Notes: generated from the letters alone by a model not told the origin. A stretch of DNA of 6,346 nt from Escherichia coli (GCF_036507355.1 NZ_AP027881.1), one strand, 5' to 3'; numbered from the stretch's first letter, positions 589 to 6,346 are shown. A program made the numbers and translations.

Positions 589-589
589 G

Positions 590-817
590 ATCAAGGGATT
601 CGAAGTCATGCGAGCCCTGCGCAAAGGACAGGCTCGCCCCTGGTGCCTGCAGCCCGGCATCAGGGGCGAGGTGCGCCTTGTGGAGAGAGCTTTTGGCATT
701 GGGCCCTCGGCGCTGACGGAGGCCATGGGCATGCTCAACCACCATTTCGCAGCAGCCGCCTGATCGGCGCAGAGCGACAGCCTACCTCTGACTGCCGCCA
801 ATCTTTGCAACAGAGCC
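590..817 (+). mobile_element. Remnant (3' end only) of an IS6-family insertion sequence, distinct from IS26
   Basis: Frame starting at 590 translates to IKGFEVMRALRKGQA...GEVRLVERAF, matching the C-terminus of the IS26 transposase in this window (KGIEVMRALRKGQASAFYYGDPLGEMRLVSRVFEM) at protein but not nucleotide level. Stop at 761-763 is followed 54 bp later by TTTGCAACAGAGCC (804-817), 13/14 identical to the IS26 terminal inverted repeat, with the same stop-to-end spacing as IS26. Confidence 0.55.
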
Positions 818-938
818 CTTGCGCGCATACTCATGCATGCCGTAAAAACAGAGCCTGCGCGTTTCTGGCGGGTTTTCGGGTGGTTTGTTGCCTGTTTTAC
901 CGGTTTCCCGTCAGAAACGCCCTCAGAGCCTCTCAGGC

Positions 939-966
939 GGTGCACGCAAGGGATGTTATGGTAAAT
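939..966 (+). other. XerC/XerD-type recombination core, site 1 (GGTGCACGCAA-GGGATG-TTATGGTAAAT)
   Basis: 28-bp site: 11-bp XerC-like arm, 6-bp central region, 11-bp XerD arm identical to the cer XerD arm as I recall it (TTATGGTAAAT). One of three direct copies in the window. Confidence 0.75.
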
Positions 967-1033
967 ATCGTTTATGTTGATTAACAAATTAAAAGATAAG
1001 ATTATTCCTACTTCTCTATTTTCTGGGGCTTTT

Positions 1034-1267
1034 ATGAAAAAGGTAATTCTCTCATTGGTTTTTCTGTCATCAGTAATTCTTGCTGGCTGCTCAAGCCAAG
1101 CAGGTCCATTTGTGACCAACATTAGCAGTGATGGTAGAGGTGGGCTTGTCGTTGAGAAATGTATGGTTCGCCTTGATAGAATGATTAATACCGTTGAATC
1201 ATCTAGCTGCACTAATTCAAGTATTACTCTGTCCTCACCATCTTCTAGCTCGACACTGACTCGTTAG
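1034..1267 (+). CDS. Small lipoprotein of unknown function, 77 aa, low GC
   Basis: ORF with signal peptide MKKVILSLVFLSSVILAGC (lipobox LAGC); GGGG 6 nt upstream of the ATG at 1034. The track ORF starts at 974, but that start has no SD and falls before the signal peptide. Ser-rich C-terminus. No family recognised. Confidence 0.55.
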   Translation: MKKVILSLVFLSSVILAGCSSQAGPFVTNISSDGRGGLVVEKCMVRLDRMINTVESSSCTNSSITLSSPSSSSTLTR

Positions 1268-1282
1268 ATTTCATGTTGCTAC

Positions 1283-1311
1283 TTGAGATTATTTAATTCA
1301 GCGGGTAGTCT
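1283..1311 (+). promoter_or_regulatory. RNA II (primer) promoter of ColE1-type replicon 1
   Basis: TTGAGA (-35), 17-bp spacer, TAGTCT (-10), positioned as in the pMB1 RNA II promoter (TTGAGA...TAATCT) just upstream of the RNA I terminator complement. Confidence 0.55.
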
Positions 1312-1321
1312 TTCGCTTGAA

Positions 1322-1425
1322 AAAGAAAAAACCGCCCTGCAAGGCGGTTTTTCGAAGGTTCTCTGAGCTACCAACTCTTTGAACCGAGGTAACTGGCTTG
1401 GAGGAGCACAGTCACCAAAACTTGT
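1322..1425 (-). ncRNA. RNA I antisense copy-number control RNA, replicon 1
   Basis: Complement of the RNA II 5' region. 5' end placed by alignment to pMB1 RNA I (ACAGTATTTGG vs ACAAGTTTTGG here); 3' end is the hairpin ACCGCCTTGCAGGGCGGT plus U-run. Ends approximate to about 5 nt. Confidence 0.7.
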
Positions 1426-2432
1426 CCTTTCAGTTTAGCCTTAACCGGCGCATAACTTCAAGACTAACTCCTCTAAATCAATTACCAGTGGCTGCTGCCA
1501 GTGGCGCTTTTGCATGTCTTTCCGGGTTGGACTCAAGTCGATAGTTACCGGAACAGGCGCAGCAGTCGGACTGAACGGGGGGTTCGTGCATACAGTCCAG
1601 CTTGGAGCGAACTGCCTTCCCGGAACCGAGTGTCAGGCGTGGAATGAGATAAACGCGGCCATAACAGCGGAATGACACCGGTAAACCGAAAGGCAGGAAC
1701 AGGAGAGCGCACGAGGGAGCTACCAGGGGGAAACGCCTGGGATCTTTATAGTCCTGTCGGGTTTCGCCGCCACTGATTTGAGCGTCAGATTTTGTGATGC
1801 TTGTCAGGGGGGCGGAGCCTATGGAAAAACGGCAACGCCGCTTCCTTTTCTCTTCCTTTCCCAATTTGATTGCTACTAGCCTACTCCTTTACTTCTGAGC
1901 CGGTAACGCCCGCCGCAGTCTCACGTCCGGAGCGTAGCGACCGAGTGAGCGAGGAGGCGTAATTTCATCGACTCCTGCATTTTTCACTTACGCCCTACAG
2001 CTACATTTTTCACCTGCCAGGGGTCAGTTTGGATATAGAGAATTATTGTACGGTAAGCCTGTTTTTTGAACAGACTTACCTATAGCAATAGGGTGTACTC
2101 CCGCGCTATACGGCATTTTCAGAGGTTTGACCTTAATCGGATAACCTAAATGCGATACTGCAAGAGCGACAACTTAAAAGCGATAGCCACTGACGCAAAA
2201 TCAACCCCTTACGAACCAAGATTGGTTAAATAATGCGCTTAACGTACAAAAATTTCCGATCTCCAAACTGACCCCTTCTTCGCCTCTTATGTTTCTCGAA
2301 TGAATCGATGGGGACAGGAAATGTTTTGTGGCCACCGCCGCTTCGCCGGCACCACAAAACTGTCGGACAAGATGTGTTTTTGGAGTACCGCCGGCACCAA
2401 AAACATTTCATCAGGCGCAGCCTGATACCCTG

Positions 2433-2452
2433 AATTTCGTACGTACGAAATT
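2433..2452. repeat. Perfect 20-bp palindrome AATTTCGTACGTACGAAATT
   Basis: Exactly self-complementary; lies in a gene-free tract that also holds two tandem hairpin units (2323-2360, 2375-2405). Confidence 0.8.
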
Positions 2453-2850
2453 TTGCTTTTGTTCAGATCGAGGGCAGGATTCGCAAAGTGCTGGCGTTTG
2501 TGCTCACATCCTTTAGACGTTGCGATGCAGGATAGGGCAGACGCCGCAAAATGACGTCATTTGCGGTATCTGCCCCGAAAACAGAATGTTTTCTCCTGAG
2601 CCTGCAGCTGGCTCTCAGAACCCCTACCGCCTCGCAAAGCTCGTTGCTCAACGCCTCACGACCGCACAGTAAACTGTGCACCCGTTCACCGTTATCGATG
2701 GGGTTCAGCGAGCCTTTTGAGCAGTTCGCAGGATTTTAGCCGCTAAAATTCCGGCCAGGCATGTTCGTGCATAGCCATGCAGATGCGCAGAAATCATCAG
2801 GCGCGTTTTTCAGGGGTTGGTGCTGGGAAAGGTGCCGGAAACGGCCCGTT

Positions 2851-2878
2851 CGCCTCAAAATGGCTCTGAGGCGTTTTC
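2851..2878 (+). terminator. Hairpin plus T-run just upstream of Xer site 2
   Basis: CGCCTCA-aaatggctc-TGAGGCG followed by TTTTC. The same GCCTCA/TGAGGC stem recurs before site 3 and in degenerate form before site 1, so it may be part of the recombination-site module rather than only a terminator. Confidence 0.35.
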
Positions 2879-2881
2879 AGC

Positions 2882-2909
2882 GGTGCGGGCAAGGGATGTT
2901 ATGGTAAAT
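2882..2909 (+). other. XerC/XerD-type recombination core, site 2 (GGTGCGGGCAA-GGGATG-TTATGGTAAAT)
   Basis: Same architecture and identical central region and XerD arm as site 1; direct orientation. Confidence 0.75.
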
Positions 2910-2944
2910 TGCTCATCACAGTAGCCAGTTAAGCAGAGGTTAGA

Positions 2945-3271
2945 ATGTTTGGGTTTTTTAAGAAAAAAAAGCTCTATGAAGAGATCTGTAAAGATGCAGG
3001 GATGGCTTTATCTGATGGGTTATTGGCCCAAGGCTTAGCGAGAAACAAAATAGAAGCAATGGGGGCTGGTGCTGTTTTTAGTCAGTCTTTGAGGGAGGCT
3101 GTTTCTCAAGGTTACAAGTCTTCTGATGCGATTGCTGAAGCAAGAAAAAACACATCTCATCATCTAGCTGCTAGAGGGTTTGATTTTGAAACGATCGCAA
3201 GTGCGATTGATGTTTTTTGTACTGCTACAGCATTTGAATCAATGTTAGATCTTGCTCGCGATAAAGGCTGA
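2945..3271 (+). CDS. Hypothetical cytoplasmic protein, 108 aa, low GC
   Basis: ORF with good SD (GAGG 6 nt upstream of ATG); no signal peptide; lysine-rich N-terminus (MFGFFKKKK). Bracketed by Xer sites 2 and 3. No family recognised. Confidence 0.6.
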   Translation: MFGFFKKKKLYEEICKDAGMALSDGLLAQGLARNKIEAMGAGAVFSQSLREAVSQGYKSSDAIAEARKNTSHHLAARGFDFETIASAIDVFCTATAFESMLDLARDKG

Positions 3272-3303
3272 ATATCGAGAGGAGTGACGGGTTGTTATCA
3301 TTA

Positions 3304-3330
3304 GCCTCAGAGTAGATTTGAGGCCTTTTG
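3304..3330 (+). terminator. Hairpin plus T-run after the 108-aa ORF, immediately upstream of Xer site 3
   Basis: GCCTCA-gagtagatt-TGAGGC followed by CTTTTG, 33 nt after the ORF stop; same stem as the site 2 hairpin. Confidence 0.4.
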
Positions 3331-3333
3331 GGC

Positions 3334-3361
3334 GGTGTATGCAGGAGATGTTATGGTAAAT
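3334..3361 (+). other. XerC/XerD-type recombination core, site 3 (GGTGTATGCAG-GAGATG-TTATGGTAAAT)
   Basis: XerD arm identical to sites 1 and 2; XerC arm and central region diverged; direct orientation. Confidence 0.7.
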
Positions 3362-3428
3362 ATGTCTTATTGAGAATATTCTTACTAATGCGCGGTTTTT
3401 TTCTAATTTTTAAATGGATGACTTAAAA

Positions 3429-3806
3429 ATGAAGGCAAGATTTTTTGCAGCCTTGCTTATTACTTTTTTTCTTTCTGGATGTGCGACAGAGGCGGGATAT
3501 CAAAGGGTATTAAATTCATGGATGGGATCTACTGATGTGAGCTTGATTCAGTCATGGGGGCCGCCTCAGCAATCTTATGAACTTTCTGGCCATACCTTCC
3601 TAGTTTATTCAAATAGCTCTAGCTCTTATATACCTGGAGTGGCTCCTACCTATCAGACTACGTTTATTGGTAATACAGCGTATACAAACACCTATGGCGG
3701 CTCGCCCGGCTTTAATGTTAGCTACTCATGTACTACGACTTTTGAGGTTGTTGGCGGGAAAATTGTTAACTGGCGTTATCAGGGCAACAATTGCACATCG
3801 CGTTAG
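3429..3806 (+). CDS. Lipoprotein of unknown function, 125 aa, low GC
   Basis: Signal peptide MKARFFAALLITFFLSGC (lipobox LSGC). Start at 3429 preferred over the track start at 3414 because it begins the signal peptide. Mature part is Ser/Thr/Tyr/Gly-rich with two Cys near the C-terminus. No family recognised. Confidence 0.65.
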   Translation: MKARFFAALLITFFLSGCATEAGYQRVLNSWMGSTDVSLIQSWGPPQQSYELSGHTFLVYSNSSSSYIPGVAPTYQTTFIGNTAYTNTYGGSPGFNVSYSCTTTFEVVGGKIVNWRYQGNNCTSR

Positions 3807-3973
3807 TCGTGTGTCCAATCGTAGTATCAGGTGAAGATACAATAGAGAACTTAATACCCTCTTGGTGGGTATATAAAAACCAAGATGAGCGTAGCGACCT
3901 TCTTTAAACTCGTTCCTTGTGTGTCTTACCCTGCAAAAGGTTTGATTGTGTGGGTGTAAATGAAATCGTTGCG

Positions 3974-4003
3974 TTGACAGTTACATGTGACGAGATGTAG
4001 TCT
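3974..4003 (+). promoter_or_regulatory. RNA II (primer) promoter of ColE1-type replicon 2
   Basis: TTGACA (-35), 18-bp spacer, TAGTCT (-10), directly upstream of the RNA I terminator complement. Confidence 0.55.
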
Positions 4004-4011
4004 CTAAAACG

Positions 4012-4112
4012 AAAAAACCGCCCTGCAAGGCGGTTTTTTCGAAGGTTCTCTGAGCTACCAACTCTTTGAACCGAGGTAACTGGCTTGGAGGAGCGCAGTC
4101 ACCAAAACTGTT
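4012..4112 (-). ncRNA. RNA I antisense copy-number control RNA, replicon 2
   Basis: Same reasoning as replicon 1 RNA I; terminator hairpin ACCGCCTTGCAGGGCGGT plus U-run at the 3' end. Ends approximate. Confidence 0.7.
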
Positions 4113-4693
4113 CGTTTAGTTTAGCCTTAACCGGCGCATAACTTCAAGACTATCTCCTCTAAATCAGTTACCAGTGGCTACCGCCAATGGCGATTTGTCG
4201 TGTCTTTCCGGGTTGGACTCAAGACGATAGTTACCGGAACGGGCGTGGTAGTCGGACTGAACGGGGGGTTCGTGCATACAGTCCAGCTTGGAGCGAACTG
4301 CCTACCCGGAACTGAGTGTCAGGCGTGGAATGAGATAAACGCGGCCATAACAGCGGAATGACACCGGTAAACCGAAAGGCAGGAACAGGAGAGCGCACGA
4401 GGGAGCCACCAGGGGGAAACGCCTGGGATCTTTAAGTCCTGTCGGGTTTCGCCACCACTGATTTGAGCGTCAGATTTCGTGATGCTTGTCAGGGGGGCGG
4501 AGCCTATGGAAAAACGCCCGCCGGGGCGTGGCCTTTTCGCCCTTGTCCTTAGCTTTCGTTATGCTTACCGTTACGTTATCTGCTTATCCTCCCTCCGCTC
4601 GCCGCAGACTCATGACCGAACGGAGTGAGCGAATGAGCGAGGAAGCGGAAAACAATCAGAACGTACAGTAAGCACTTTCGCGCCGGGGCCTTC

Positions 4694-4885
4694 ATGAACA
4701 AACAACAAAAGACAGCCGTTAACATGGCTAAATTCATCCAGGATCAGTCCCTGCTTCTTCTGGACAGGCTTAATGAGCTGGATCTGGATCATGAGGCTGA
4801 TTTCTGCGAGAAACTCCATGAGGATGCGGAACGCCTTTACCGAAGCCTGTCAGCGCGCCTGAATGAGCAGCAGGACGGTGCGTAA
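4694..4885 (+). CDS. rop: Rop/Rom (RNA one modulator) homolog, 63 aa
   Basis: Same length as pMB1 Rop, with clear similarity along the whole protein as recalled (MTKQEKTALNMARFIRSQTLTLLEKLNELDADEQADICESLHDHADELYRSCLARF vs MNKQQKTAVNMAKFIQDQSLLLLDRLNELDLDHEADFCEKLHEDAERLYRSLSARL here). Confidence 0.85.
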   Translation: MNKQQKTAVNMAKFIQDQSLLLLDRLNELDLDHEADFCEKLHEDAERLYRSLSARLNEQQDGA

Positions 4886-4898
4886 TGTCTCCGTTCTG

Positions 4899-4918
4899 GG
4901 TATTACCGGAGTAATACC
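4899..4918. repeat. Perfect hairpin/palindrome GGTATTAC-cgga-GTAATACC downstream of rop
   Basis: 8-bp perfect stem with 4-nt loop. A second palindrome with the same half-site, TATTACC-cc-GGTAATA, lies at 4957-4972. Confidence 0.6.
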
Positions 4919-5188
4919 GGCATCGCCTTAATTTTCATTGTCTTAGCGCTTAACATTATTACCCCGGTAATACCCACAATCCCTGTATTTTTTCTTTTTT
5001 ATTTATTTTTCATGAAGTTGCGATGAAAATCGCAGCTGCGTTAGGTGTATGACCATTTTGAGGTTGAAAAATAATCAACCATGGCGGGTGATTTACGCAG
5101 GTTAAGGGGAGATCGTGACAAAAAAAAGCGTTCCTCACTGTATCGTTCATGCCTGCATGAACGGGTTATTCTTCCTGACTACAGAATT

Positions 5189-5340
5189 ACATCGCTCCTT
5201 CAGTTCATACATCACTTTTACAACACTTTTACAACACTCCTTCGGCCTGTACATCACTTTTACAACACTTTTGCATCACTTTTACATCATTTATACATCA
5301 CTTTTACATCATTCCTTCAGCTCATACGTCACTTTCATCC
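5189..5340. repeat. Tract of roughly 11-bp tandem repeats (core ACAxCACTTTT), iteron-like
   Basis: Repeated units ACATCACTTTT / ACAACACTTTT / GCATCACTTTT / ACATCATTT across about 150 bp, bracketed by direct repeats CCTTCAGTTCATACATCACTTT (5197-5218) and CCTTCAGCTCATACGTCACTTT (5314-5335). The ORFs the track predicts here are repeat-translation artefacts. Confidence 0.7.
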
Positions 5341-5526
5341 TCTGTGCCATTTGTACATCACCCCCTTCCTGAACGTGCTGACAGCGGGTTTTCCGGCTGC
5401 GCCGGCAACGCTTCACGGCCACGCAATAAATTGCGTCCCCGTTCACCGTTTTCGGATGGGAAGAACGCCGGAAACAGGACTTCCCCTGGCTGAATGGTGT
5501 GAATTTCCGCGCTATGCACTTGCGCG

Positions 5527-6346
5527 GGCACTGTTGCAAAGTTAGCGATGAGGCAGCCTTTTGTCTTATTCAAAGGCCTTACATTTCAAAAACTCTGCTT
5601 ACCAGGCGCATTTCGCCCAGGGGATCACCATAATAAAATGCTGAGGCCTGGCCTTTGCGTAGTGCACGCATCACCTCAATACCTTTGATGGTGGCGTAAG
5701 CCGTCTTCATGGATTTAAATCCCAGCGTGGCGCCGATTATCCGTTTCAGTTTGCCATGATCGCATTCAATCACGTTGTTCCGGTACTTAATCTGTCGGTG
5801 TTCAACGTCAGACGGGCACCGGCCTTCGCGTTTGAGCAGAGCAAGCGCGCGACCATAGGCGGGCGCTTTATCCGTGTTGATGAATCGCGGGATCTGCCAC
5901 TTCTTCACGTTGTTGAGGATTTTACCCAGAAACCGGTATGCAGCTTTGCTGTTACGACGGGAGGAGAGATAAAAATCGACAGTGCGGCCCCGGCTGTCGA
6001 CGGCCCGGTACAGATACGCCCAGCGGCCATTGACCTTCACGTAGGTTTCATCCATGTGCCACGGGCAAAGATCGGAAGGGTTACGCCAGTACCAGCGCAG
6101 CCGTTTTTCCATTTCAGGCGCATAACGCTGAACCCAGCGGTAAATCGTGGAGTGATCGACATTCACTCCGCGTTCAGCCAGCATCTCCTGCAGCTCACGG
6201 TAACTGATGCCGTATTTGCAGTACCAGCGTACGGCCCACAGAATGATGTCACGCTGAAAATGCCGGCCTTTGAATGGGTTCATGTGCAGCTCCATCAGCA
6301 AAAGGGGATGATAAGTTTATCACCACCGACTATTTGCAACAGTGCC
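5527..6346 (-). mobile_element. IS26 (IS6 family), complete 820-bp copy
   Basis: 14-bp terminal inverted repeats GGCACTGTTGCAAA at 5527-5540 and its reverse complement at 6333-6346; length 820 bp; encodes the canonical Tnp26 sequence. The element ends at the last base of the window. Confidence 0.95.
5579..6283 (-). CDS. tnp26: IS26 transposase Tnp26, 234 aa
   Basis: Translation MNPFKGRHFQRDIILWAVRWYCKYGISYRELQEMLAERG...GEMRLVSRVFEM matches IS26 transposase as recalled. The track ORF carries a 6-codon upstream extension (MLMELH) that is probably not translated. Confidence 0.95.
   Translation of the reverse strand: MNPFKGRHFQRDIILWAVRWYCKYGISYRELQEMLAERGVNVDHSTIYRWVQRYAPEMEKRLRWYWRNPSDLCPWHMDETYVKVNGRWAYLYRAVDSRGRTVDFYLSSRRNSKAAYRFLGKILNNVKKWQIPRFINTDKAPAYGRALALLKREGRCPSDVEHRQIKYRNNVIECDHGKLKRIIGATLGFKSMKTAYATIKGIEVMRALRKGQASAFYYGDPLGEMRLVSRVFEM

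Follow-up and report, generated by a model that had tools for sequence, protein, structure and literature searches.

Small ColE1-like plasmids of enterobacteria are known to form cointegrates and to exchange modules through Xer recombination, and the review accounts drawn on here (PMC6764390, PMC8683028) describe this for qnrB19 plasmids (Tran et al. 2012) and for pECL18/pKPN2 (Zakharova et al. 2002). The Xer site of ColE1 itself, cer, requires about 180 bp of accessory sequence together with ArgR and PepA, and these restrict it to resolution (PMC5357621), so that fusion through such sites needs a relaxed or rare event. In ColE1 homodimers, the subject of the 'dimer catastrophe' model, two origins stand under one inhibitor pool and directly repeated Xer sites allow resolution (PMC2831885). 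Published values for the effect of two origins on copy number disagree, since dimers are credited with about half (PMC2831885) and a ColE1 plasmid engineered to have two origins with about 400 copies versus 50 (PMC1664580). In Acinetobacter, multiple Xer cores (pdif, or XerC/D sites) bracket exchangeable modules and mediate both fusion and resolution (PMC5790767).

The stretch of Escherichia coli DNA analysed here (the window, 6346 bp in total) carries two replicons that resemble that of ColE1/pMB1 in their full-length RNA I, in an alignment that runs from promoter to A-run, and in the G-run and pas-like blocks present in both copies. They differ from ColE1 in a primer region about 45 nt shorter (deletions of 25 and 13 nt), in a rop gene that points in the same direction as RNA II and not to the opposite strand as in the ColE1 record, in the lack of an own rop for replicon 1, and in the presence of two replicons on what is probably one molecule. 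The Xer sites of the window share with cer the XerC and XerD arms, the latter (TTATGGTAAAT) being identical, an upstream region of about 230 bp that aligns with cer and includes a presumed ArgR box, and the way they point with respect to RNA II (PMC2831885, PMC5357621). In contrast to cer, their central region measures 6 bp (28-bp core) instead of 8 bp, an IS composite has cost site A its distal accessory DNA, site C consists of a core alone, and the sites appear to mark the fusion of different plasmids, not a homodimer awaiting resolution.

As far as the review descriptions of the qnrB19 and pECL18/pKPN2 cases allow a comparison, those plasmids or cassettes were likewise joined at Xer sites with the switch inside the core; here, however, a cryptic replicon of 1943 bp is paired with a rop-positive plasmid that bears IS26, the replicons of the two partners are predicted to have a common RNA I specificity, and an IS has damaged one Xer site. 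Unlike those of a ColE1 homodimer, the halves of the window are different plasmids with origin regions 94.7% identical, and resolution of such unlike halves would yield two unlike, mutually incompatible products. The 452-bp cassette between sites B and C resembles a pdif module, but the host family and plasmid type are different and two of the three window sites retain cer-type accessory sequences. Finally, three other natural plasmids, NZ_CP118571.1 (5.2 kb, qnrB19), NZ_CP042340.1 (12.6 kb) and NZ_CP075743.1 (9.0 kb), also combine a pair of complete RNA I genes, both pointing the same way, on a single small plasmid, an arrangement found in 2 of 60 records in a spread sample of origin-matching PLSDB records. 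Within each of these pairs two or all three of the RNA I loops differ, and control is therefore probably independent, whereas the loops of the window are identical.

Two ColE1-type replicons in direct orientation

Two full-length RNA I matches lie in direct repeats 2686 bp apart, start to start, in agreement with the original prediction of two intact ColE1-type replicons in the same orientation; the start proposed there, 1283, falls exactly on the -35 box of copy 1. The repeat is 512 bp long (1320-1831 versus 4006-4516) and 94.7% identical over 513 columns. Similarity between the copies extends from the RNA II -10 box (GTAGTCT) to just past the origin A-run, and upstream of this box the sequence of copy 2 is unrelated to that of copy 1. 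The elements of the two replicons are the following:

1283-1311, plus strand: RNA II promoter of replicon 1, TTGAGA-17-TAGTCT, aligned base for base with the ColE1 RNA II promoter block
1319-1829, plus strand: RNA II primer region of replicon 1, from the ColE1 alignment; 5' end inferred to within a few nt, 3' end at the A-run
about 1323-1425, minus strand: RNA I of replicon 1 (Rfam match 1323-1423; RF00106, full model, 92.6 bits, E 6e-17)
1432-1461, minus strand: RNA I promoter block of replicon 1, TTGAAG-18-TAAACT, homologous to the ColE1 block
1820-1831, plus strand: origin 1, A-run TATGGAAAAACG, where similarity between the copies ends
about 1907-1959, plus strand: pas-like (primosome assembly) block after origin 1, putative, from alignment to ColE1 and pLR-62-2_8
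3974-4003, plus strand: RNA II promoter of replicon 2, TTGACA-18-TAGTCT, identical in pCE35-4
4006-4514, plus strand: RNA II primer region of replicon 2, from the ColE1 alignment; 5' end inferred
about 4009-4111, minus strand: RNA I of replicon 2 (Rfam match 4009-4110; RF00106, full model, 95.8 bits, E 1e-17)
4118-4147, minus strand: RNA I promoter block of replicon 2, the same 30-mer as in replicon 1
4505-4516, plus strand: origin 2, A-run TATGGAAAAACG, from the repeat comparison and the ColE1 alignment
about 4595-4650, plus strand: pas-like block after origin 2, putative, from the ColE1 alignment
4694-4885, plus strand: rop (PF01815, 2.4e-29), in the direction of RNA II

Both copies align to ColE1 (NC_001371) over the entire primer region, which begins at the RNA II promoter and ends at the A-run of the origin, and this alignment together with Rfam confirmed that RNA I with its terminator and the origin blocks are kept in each, with an RNA II promoter assigned by homology. 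A G6 run (1577-1582 and 4263-4268) and a G6 block some 15-20 nt ahead of the origin (1807-1812 and 4492-4497) are likewise kept in both copies; from what is known of ColE1 we take these G-run blocks to be implicated in persistent hybrid formation, and TATGGAAAAACG is presumably the RNA-to-DNA transition run. None of the four RNA II and RNA I promoters was flagged by a generic promoter scan, at whose thresholds ColE1's own promoters (RNA II TTGAGA/TAATCT) would fail too, and the hexamers given above come from homology. A plasmid homodimer with two identical halves was ruled out, as the earlier reading of similar but not identical copies had implied: the repeats diverge, their flanks are unrelated, and the halves measure 1943 and 4403 bp. 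The risk of homologous deletion between the copies, which had also been pointed out, is real, with identical runs of up to 93 bp. The comparisons support the presence of two complete origins, from related ColE1-type plasmids, probably on one molecule.

RNA I, Rop and predicted copy control

Both RNA I matches exceed the gathering score of RF00106 (47), and both RNAs are predicted to fold into three hairpins with the same loops (CCUCCA, GGU and UGCA), at -41.4 kcal/mol for copy 1 (z = -3.6) and -46.4 kcal/mol for copy 2 (z = -5.6); a terminator-like site of RNA I copy 1 lies at 1353-1326. Cross duplexes between the two replicons reach -196 and -200 kcal/mol, compared with -209 and -212 kcal/mol for the cognate pairs (92-96% of cognate), and duplexes with the replicon of pLR-62-2_8 are weaker (-151 to -163 kcal/mol). 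Given identical loops and near-identical stems, each RNA I should inhibit both primers, so that the cross-regulation suggested for the two RNA I/RNA II pairs is upheld as a prediction, and the two replicons are predicted to draw on one common copy-control pool, as those of a plasmid dimer do. A search of the window by tblastn returned one rop match (4694-4882) and no second, and rop accordingly follows copy 2 only, as had been noted. The encoded Rop has 63 aa, matches PF01815 over residues 1-56 and is 59% identical to ColE1 Rop.

A 1943-bp plasmid between two Xer cores

Each replicon matches the sole ColE1 replicon of a separate plasmid (pKmfe267-5 and pCE35-4), which supports the proposed cointegrate of two related small ColE1-like plasmids. 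Copy 1 is sequence-identical to the only replicon of five 1943-bp records that are autonomous in PLSDB, copy 2 is likewise identical in sequence to the one RNA I replicon that pCE35-4 has, and Rfam found no further RNA I gene in the plasmids matching each replicon. These identities lend indirect support to the idea that each copy may replicate on its own, with no Rep protein from the plasmid. The window departs from the free 1943-bp plasmid only at 944-945, in the XerC arm of site A. From 2891 to 5051 it equals pCE35-4 except for one SNP, at 4654, and whatever else distinguishes it from pCE35-4 is confined to the XerC arm of site B and the sequence left of that site. The Xer sites and the 1943-bp unit comprise:

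5400-5526, plus strand: distal accessory sequence of site A, from the cer alignment, cut off from the core by a 1637-bp IS composite
823-840, plus strand: presumed ArgR box of site A, GCGCATACTCATGCATGC, aligned with TTGCATAGGTATTCATAC of ColE1 cer
939-966, plus strand: core of Xer site A, the left junction, GGTGCACGCAA-GGGATG-TTATGGTAAAT
946-2909, plus strand: integrated 1943-bp cryptic ColE1 plasmid of pKmfe267-5 type, 100% identical to NZ_CP071398.1
1034-1267: small lipoprotein ORF in the 1943-bp unit
2020-2275: 256-bp MITE in the 1943-bp unit
2649-2881, plus strand: accessory sequences of site B, from the 1943-bp plasmid, aligned with ColE1 cer over about 260 bp
2767-2784, plus strand: presumed ArgR box of site B, from the cer alignment
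2882-2909, plus strand: core of Xer site B, the right junction, GGTGCGGGCAA-GGGATG-TTATGGTAAAT
3334-3361, plus strand: core of Xer site C, without accessory region, GGTGTATGCAG-GAGATG-TTATGGTAAAT

The boxes are called presumed since we take TTGCATAGGTATTCATAC to be the ArgR box of ColE1 cer. Sites A and B align with ColE1 cer over about 260 bp; the alignment is full at site B, is interrupted by the IS composite beyond the presumed ArgR box of site A, and is lacking at site C; sites B and C bracket the 452-bp cassette, which has one ORF. Cores A and B are 28-bp direct repeats exactly 1943 bp apart, the size of the free plasmid, and the parental switch points fall inside them, at 946-966 and 2891-2909. 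At site A the left flank and XerC arm match pLR-62-2_8 and the right flank matches the 1943-bp plasmid; at site B the left half matches the 1943-bp plasmid and the right flank the cassette of pCE35-4 and NZ_CP034051. With both crossovers inside Xer cores, we ascribe the fusion to XerCD and not to IS26 or RecA. The metagenome contig OOBX01001041.1 (L015) contains the 1943-bp module with an identical junction A and has a 55-bp terminal overlap. One left half, on the side of site A, thus occurs with two different neighbours to its right: in pLR-62-2_8 it is joined to a SHOCT-gene module, in the window and in this contig to the 1943-bp plasmid. The 1943-bp module has been captured independently at Xer cores in pEC17CM12_6 and p16EC-9K.

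The IS26/IS6100 composite and the probable closure of the window

The 1637-bp IS composite directly borders site A's presumed ArgR box on the upstream side and includes:

5527-6346, minus strand: complete IS26 with both 14-bp inverted repeats (NCBIfam transpos_IS6, 2.3e-82), 100% identical to the IS26 copies in L004
127-588, plus strand: DMT-family transporter gene, from annotation
589-817, plus strand: 3' end of IS6100, 100% identity, terminal repeat at 804-817

An 8-bp target duplication, CTTGCGCG, at 5519-5526 and 818-825, pairs the IS26 end with the IS6100 end and spans the 6346/1 junction. In pA1731-KPC and many ColE1-like plasmids 5400-5526 is contiguous with 818-966, and the displacement of the distal accessory DNA by the composite may hinder resolution at site A. 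Window 4995-6346 runs straight into 1-966 in the circular plasmid pLR-62-2_8 (L001), and position 6346 is also contiguous with position 1 in OOBX01001041.1. On the strength of this contiguity in pLR-62-2_8 the window is probably the complete circle of a 6346-bp mosaic plasmid, with parts of 1943 and 4403 bp. Neither the full mosaic nor junction B has another record in PLSDB, RefSeq complete E. coli genomes, GTDB representative genomes or JGI metagenomes, and the presumed 4.4-kb recipient plasmid is absent among the collections searched.

Alternative explanations

We think it likely, from sequence comparison, that XerCD inserted a cryptic plasmid of 1943 bp, until then free, at the cer-like site of a rop-positive ColE1-like plasmid of about 4.4 kb, and that the window is probably the resulting circle. 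The absence of the exact mosaic and of junction B from the four collections would also fit an assembly chimera, in which two or three co-resident small plasmids were joined in silico at Xer cores or at the origin repeat; related small plasmids have the conserved cores and a 460-bp backbone stretch in common, and at least one public record of this plasmid family (L010) resembles a partial duplicate. We nevertheless regard such a chimera as improbable. The parents share just about 19-21 identical bases per junction, which is below usual assembly k-mers and far too short to mislead long reads, and a false join would require each parent to have shed hundreds of bases. The origin copies are not hybrids: each is 100% like one parent from end to end, so that no false join took place within the 93-bp identical runs. 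Moreover, junction A recurs in the independent metagenome contig, and if the 55-bp terminal overlap of that contig is the assembly k-mer, its junction-spanning 55-mers must be from real reads. Fusion by IS26 cointegrate formation, or by RecA recombination between the homologous origin regions, could draw on the intact IS26 at 5527-6346, on the recorded fusion of ColE1 plasmids with other replicons by IS26 (PMC8683028) and on the identical runs in the origin repeats, but it is very hard to reconcile with the junctions and we consider it highly improbable: the parental switches lie in Xer cores, neither at IS26 nor inside the origin repeat, and pLR-62-2_8 has the same IS insertion without the 1943-bp unit. 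The conventional IS26-mediated cointegrate, with two direct IS26 copies at the partner junctions and an 8-bp duplication, was ruled out, since there is a single IS26, its duplication pairs with the IS6100 end 1.6 kb off, and Xer cores stand at the junctions of the 1943-bp unit. The original suggestion of assembly through IS26 and/or Xer recombination thus holds for its Xer part and fails for IS26.

It is also conceivable, though in our judgement rather doubtful, that the fusion is real and made by Xer but is transient or a minority form, in equilibrium with 1943-bp and 4403-bp plasmids, or that only one of the two origins is used when fused. Sites A and B are direct repeats, B has the full cer-like accessory region, and A still has the core, the presumed ArgR box and the proximal accessory DNA, which should permit resolution; in PLSDB the free state of the 1943-bp plasmid is the commoner one (5 of 7 records), and ColE1 dimers have been described as destabilising (PMC2831885). 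On the other hand, the fused form is what was recovered, site A is without its distal accessory DNA, and, given identical loops, incompatibility is to be expected between the two products of resolution, which would favour fusion when both parts are selected.

Proposed history and implications

According to the preferred reading, integration by XerCD, the host recombinase would have joined the 1943-bp plasmid to the rop-positive recipient of about 4.4 kb at its cer-like site. Both origins would be able to fire in the standard ColE1 way, with a persistent RNA II hybrid, an RNase H cut at the A-run and extension by Pol I, each RNA I would inhibit both RNA II primers, and the single Rop would act in trans on both kissing complexes. 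Copy control would then be dimer-like, with one inhibitor pool for two origins. As A and B are direct repeats, XerCD could re-excise the 1943-bp plasmid, and both products would replicate; the composite would have stripped the distal accessory DNA from site A, and slower resolution may help the fused form to persist.

The window is a clean example of a known route of small-plasmid fusion, and the mechanism itself is not new. The cause of any relaxation of Xer directionality is a matter of conjecture. We hypothesise, as an unlikely possibility, that the IS26/IS6100 insertion converted a site of cer type, limited to resolution, into an Xer docking site free of topological constraint, at which whole replicons were repeatedly captured. 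If this were true, two ColE1 origins that would be incompatible when apart would be held together here, and the plasmid would be a natural, stable 'heterodimer' in which origin counting and the dimer-catastrophe model could be tested.

Two related ColE1-type replicons in the window

As the original prediction had claimed, the window carries two RNA I-bearing ColE1-type replicons in direct orientation, about 2.7 kb apart: the Rfam model for RNA I (RF00106, gathering score 47) matched twice, and a repeat finder together with pairwise alignment gave two directly repeated segments, 1320-1831 and 4006-4516, whose starts are 2685-2687 bp apart. The main features of copy 1, the origin inside an integrated 1943-bp plasmid, and of copy 2, the rop-linked origin, are the following.

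1283-1311, RNA II promoter of copy 1 (TTGAGA-17-TAGTCT), which aligns with the ColE1 RNA II promoter
1323-1423, minus strand, RNA I of copy 1 (RF00106, full model, 92.6 bits, E 6e-17)
3974-4003, RNA II promoter of copy 2 (TTGACA-18-TAGTCT), with upstream sequence unrelated to copy 1
4009-4110, minus strand, RNA I of copy 2 (RF00106, full model, 95.8 bits, E 1e-17)
4694-4885, rop, single copy (Pfam match, 2.4e-29; 59% identity to ColE1 Rop)

The origin repeats proved similar and not identical, also as proposed, with 94.7% identity over 513 columns (copy 1 being represented in this comparison by the identical 1943-bp plasmid). Their similarity runs from the RNA II -10 box to just past TATGGAAAAACG; a pas-like block some 80-130 nt beyond that point is again weakly similar. 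Alignment to ColE1 (NC_001371) showed that the whole primer region of both copies is homologous to it, with the G6 run, the RNA I promoter block, the origin A-run and a second G6 block, about 15-20 nt before the origin, retained in both; compared with ColE1, the two primer regions are about 45 nt shorter, via two deletions. A generic promoter scan flagged none of the four RNA II and RNA I promoters, and those of ColE1 itself fall below the same thresholds.

The claim that rop follows only copy 2 held as well, tblastn giving no further Rop match in the window; a search of NCBIfam returned no usable family for this protein, which Pfam then confirmed. The rop gene of this plasmid group shares the direction of RNA II and begins about 180 nt beyond the origin, whereas rop in the ColE1 record (1612-1803) is encoded on the other strand, some 400 nt downstream of the origin. 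Directly after the rop stop codon there is a 23-nt inverted repeat (4894-4916 and 4957-4979, 91% complementary, 40-nt spacer), followed by an AT-rich stretch, which may be a terminator or a binding site. In several database records a 37-aa 'replication initiation protein' is annotated within the RNA II region, on the strand that encodes RNA I (L003 2919-3032, pCE35-4 3873-3986 and similar records); this looks like an annotation artefact of ColE1 origins and not a real Rep gene.

Probable integration of a cryptic plasmid at Xer cores

Whole-window searches of PLSDB and the RefSeq complete E. coli genomes returned no single record covering more than 53% of the window, and neither the source record nor the presumed 4.4-kb recipient was found in these collections. 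Parents were assigned segment by segment, with local BLAST and base-by-base comparisons. Window 946-2909 is a 100% match to the circular 1943-bp plasmid pKmfe267-5 (NZ_CP071398.1), one of five 1943-bp plasmids of this type in PLSDB, from E. coli and Klebsiella, and window 2891-5051 equals part of the 6370-bp pCE35-4 (NZ_CP139186.1), with a SNP at 4654 as the sole difference. Three 28-bp Xer cores, all in direct orientation, lie in the window.

939-966, Xer site A, GGTGCACGCAA-GGGATG-TTATGGTAAAT
2882-2909, Xer site B, GGTGCGGGCAA-GGGATG-TTATGGTAAAT
3334-3361, Xer site C, GGTGTATGCAG-GAGATG-TTATGGTAAAT

Sites A and B are spaced exactly 1943 bp apart, which is the length of the free plasmid. Site A takes its left flank and XerC arm from the backbone of the 4171-bp plasmid pLR-62-2_8 and its right flank from the 1943-bp plasmid, while site B takes its left flank and XerC arm from the 1943-bp plasmid and its right flank from the pCE35-4 cassette. 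Only two bases differ between the integrated and the free 1943-bp plasmid, both in the XerC arm of site A, and, one SNP aside, the window departs from pCE35-4 only in, or to the left of, the XerC arm of site B. The positions of these parental differences confine the crossovers to 946-966 and 2891-2909, inside the cores, which is, as read from the sequence, the signature of Xer site-specific recombination.

Both parents being matched and the crossovers lying inside Xer cores, the idea of a cointegrate of two related small ColE1-like plasmids stands, and a narrower reading, Xer-mediated integration of a known 1943-bp cryptic plasmid, is supported. Assembly through IS26 and/or Xer recombination had been suggested; the Xer part was borne out, and an IS26 cointegrate is ruled out, given that there is one IS26 only and that the junctions lie elsewhere. 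A homodimer is ruled out by the differences between the halves, in keeping with the earlier view that this is not a simple dimer. A RecA crossover within the origin repeats is ruled out too, neither copy being a hybrid of both parents, as is gene conversion between the copies, each being 100% like its own parent.

That the window is an assembly chimera we regard as unlikely. Identity between the parents at each junction extends over only about 20 bases, and an exact 56-nt probe for junction A, the left end of the insert, matched one JGI metagenome contig, OOBX01001041.1 (6543 bp), which holds the window's backbone, an identical junction A and the 1943-bp module. The 55-bp terminal overlap of this contig suggests that it is a circle, and if that overlap is an assembly k-mer, its junction A requires reads spanning the junction. 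Unlike the window, the contig has a Rep-type module after site B and one RNA I only, and therefore the same Xer sites exchange several different modules. Exact scans for junction A and for junction B, the right end of the insert, found no match in GTDB representative genomes, the scan for junction B found none in JGI metagenomes, and PLSDB and the RefSeq complete E. coli genomes hold no other record of the full mosaic. Two further plasmids, pEC17CM12_6 (4359 bp) and p16EC-9K (9228 bp), also have the 1943-bp module joined through Xer cores to a Rep-protein plasmid, and in the metagenome contig (2860-4676) the flank to the right of site B matches the Rep-protein plasmid part of these two. Separately, NZ_JBRYZC020000005.1 (7737 bp) combines a 4171-bp plasmid of the pLR-62-2_8 type with part of a second copy; its two RNA I genes are identical, and the record represents either a genuine partial dimer or an artefact of assembly.

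Probable closure of the circle and the state of site A

In the circular pLR-62-2_8, window 4995-6346 runs straight into 1-966 (99.5-99.9% identity), and it likewise continues into 1-966 in OOBX01001041.1. The ends are thus adjacent in related circles and an 8-bp duplication spans the join, so the window most likely represents an entire circle of 6346 bp, linearised at the IS26 end.

Sites A and B align to ColE1 cer, the Xer multimer-resolution site, over about 260 bp, including a segment that we take to be the ArgR box, at 823-840 for site A and 2767-2784 for site B (TTGCATAGGTATTCATAC in ColE1); an accessory region is lacking at site C. The central region is 6 bp in the window's cores and 8 bp in ColE1 cer. 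In the cer derivative termed 'type II hybrid' the central region is 6 bp and the dependence on accessory factors is lost; a literature search found no paper using this term for a cer derivative, and the likeness of the window's cores to it can serve as a lead only. At site A, a 1637-bp insertion with the following parts cuts the distal accessory DNA (5400-5526) off from the remainder.

5527-6346, IS26 (terminal repeat 5527-5540)
127-588, DMT-transporter gene
589-817, IS6100 3' end (100% identity to annotated IS6100; terminal repeat 804-817)

The IS6100 terminal repeat matches that of IS26 at 13 of 14 bases, and the insertion is flanked by the 8-bp duplication CTTGCGCG (5519-5526 and 818-825). 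From these bounding repeats and the duplication, the insertion seems to have transposed into the cer-like accessory region as one hybrid-ended unit; it is also present in pLR-62-2_8, NZ_JBRYZC020000005.1 and OOBX01001041.1. No usable family for the DMT-like protein came from NCBIfam. For cer, the restriction to resolution depends on about 180 bp of accessory DNA together with ArgR and PepA (PMC5357621), and by analogy site A, with its accessory DNA split, is probably impaired or deregulated.

Predicted copy control and recombination products

Each replicon is identical in sequence to the only ColE1-type replicon detected in a plasmid recorded as a free circle, and on the strength of this identity both are presumably competent. 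The proposed comparison of the RNA I loops was run, and all three proved identical: both species form the same three hairpins, with loops CCUCCA, GGU and UGCA, and differ at only three places. One is the bulged base of stem-loop I (U vs C), the second an additional A-U pair in stem III and the third a single base in the 5' tail. Computed RNA I-RNA II duplex energies were -209 and -212 kcal/mol for the cognate pairs and -196 and -200 kcal/mol for the cross pairs of copies 1 and 2, compared with -151 to -163 kcal/mol for either copy with the replicon of pLR-62-2_8, in which loops II and III differ. From the identical loops and near-cognate cross-duplex energies, full cross-inhibition between the two pairs is predicted. 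There would be one inhibitor pool and a single Rop, acting in trans, for two origins, copy control would be that of a permanent dimer, and the separated parents would be mutually incompatible. Xer recombination between A and B would yield circles of 1943 and 4403 bp with one origin apiece, and RecA recombination between the origin repeats, whose longest identical run is 93 bp, would yield circles of 3660 and 2686 bp, each with a hybrid origin.

An origin query matched at least 5000 PLSDB records, and in a spread sample of 60 of them two RNA I genes were verified in two; a third such plasmid was found among the close matches. Such plasmids are not rare. In all three other plasmids the RNA I pair differs in at least two loops, whereas the window's pair is alike in all three, and we would call the matching loops the single unusual feature of the window, the comparison being with a small sample of three plasmids.

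Cargo, mobile element and repeats

The 452-bp cassette between Xer cores B and C (2882-3361) has one ORF of 108 aa (2945-3271), for which there was no NCBIfam match; the cassette's layout resembles the Xer-site modules of Acinetobacter plasmids. Two small ORFs (1034-1267 and 3429-3806; 77 and 125 aa) have lipoprotein-type signal peptides with LAGC and LSGC lipoboxes, and gave no usable NCBIfam family. Each starts about 68 nt past a Xer core, which suggests that cargo genes hold a fixed position relative to the cores.

A MITE-like element of 256 bp occupies 2020-2275; its terminal inverted repeats are imperfect, about 59 nt long and begin GGGGTCAG, an end that resembles that of the Tn3 family. 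At least 936 PLSDB records contain the whole element, which carries no annotation in the matches listed; a 5-bp target duplication is absent in the window. In pCE35-4, two copies (1253-1508 and 4760-5014) flank the replicon. Between rop and the distal cer-like accessory sequence an 11-bp unit, TACATCACTTT, is repeated in tandem about 9.6 times at 5208-5311, with looser copies over 5166-5335; the array is conserved in the backbones of pLR-62-2_8, NZ_CP034051 and OOBX01001041.1. The unit equals one helical turn, and bent DNA or a protein-binding array are possibilities.

Significance

The two origins share one RNA I specificity, and the molecule is therefore expected to act as a permanent dimer, which is generally considered a harmful condition. 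Published work conflicts on the copy-number effect of two ColE1 origins, since ColE1 dimers are described as having about half the copy number and as destabilising (PMC2831885), while an engineered two-origin ColE1 plasmid is reported to have reached about 400 copies, compared with about 50 with one origin (PMC1664580); the window plasmid and its two parents would offer a simple experimental system for this disagreement. A consequence for annotation is that two ColE1 replicons reported by plasmid typing tools can belong to one real molecule. Fusion and module exchange at Xer sites among small ColE1-like plasmids are established, the qnrB19 plasmids and the pair pECL18/pKPN2 being the examples cited in PMC6764390 and PMC8683028, and the XerC/D-site cointegrates of Acinetobacter are a parallel case (PMC5790767). 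The window is probably a natural case, resolved to the base pair and with both parents identifiable in public data, of the host Xer system fusing two presumably self-sufficient ColE1 replicons, and such fusions are one way in which small cryptic plasmids shuffle cargo and gain elements such as IS26.
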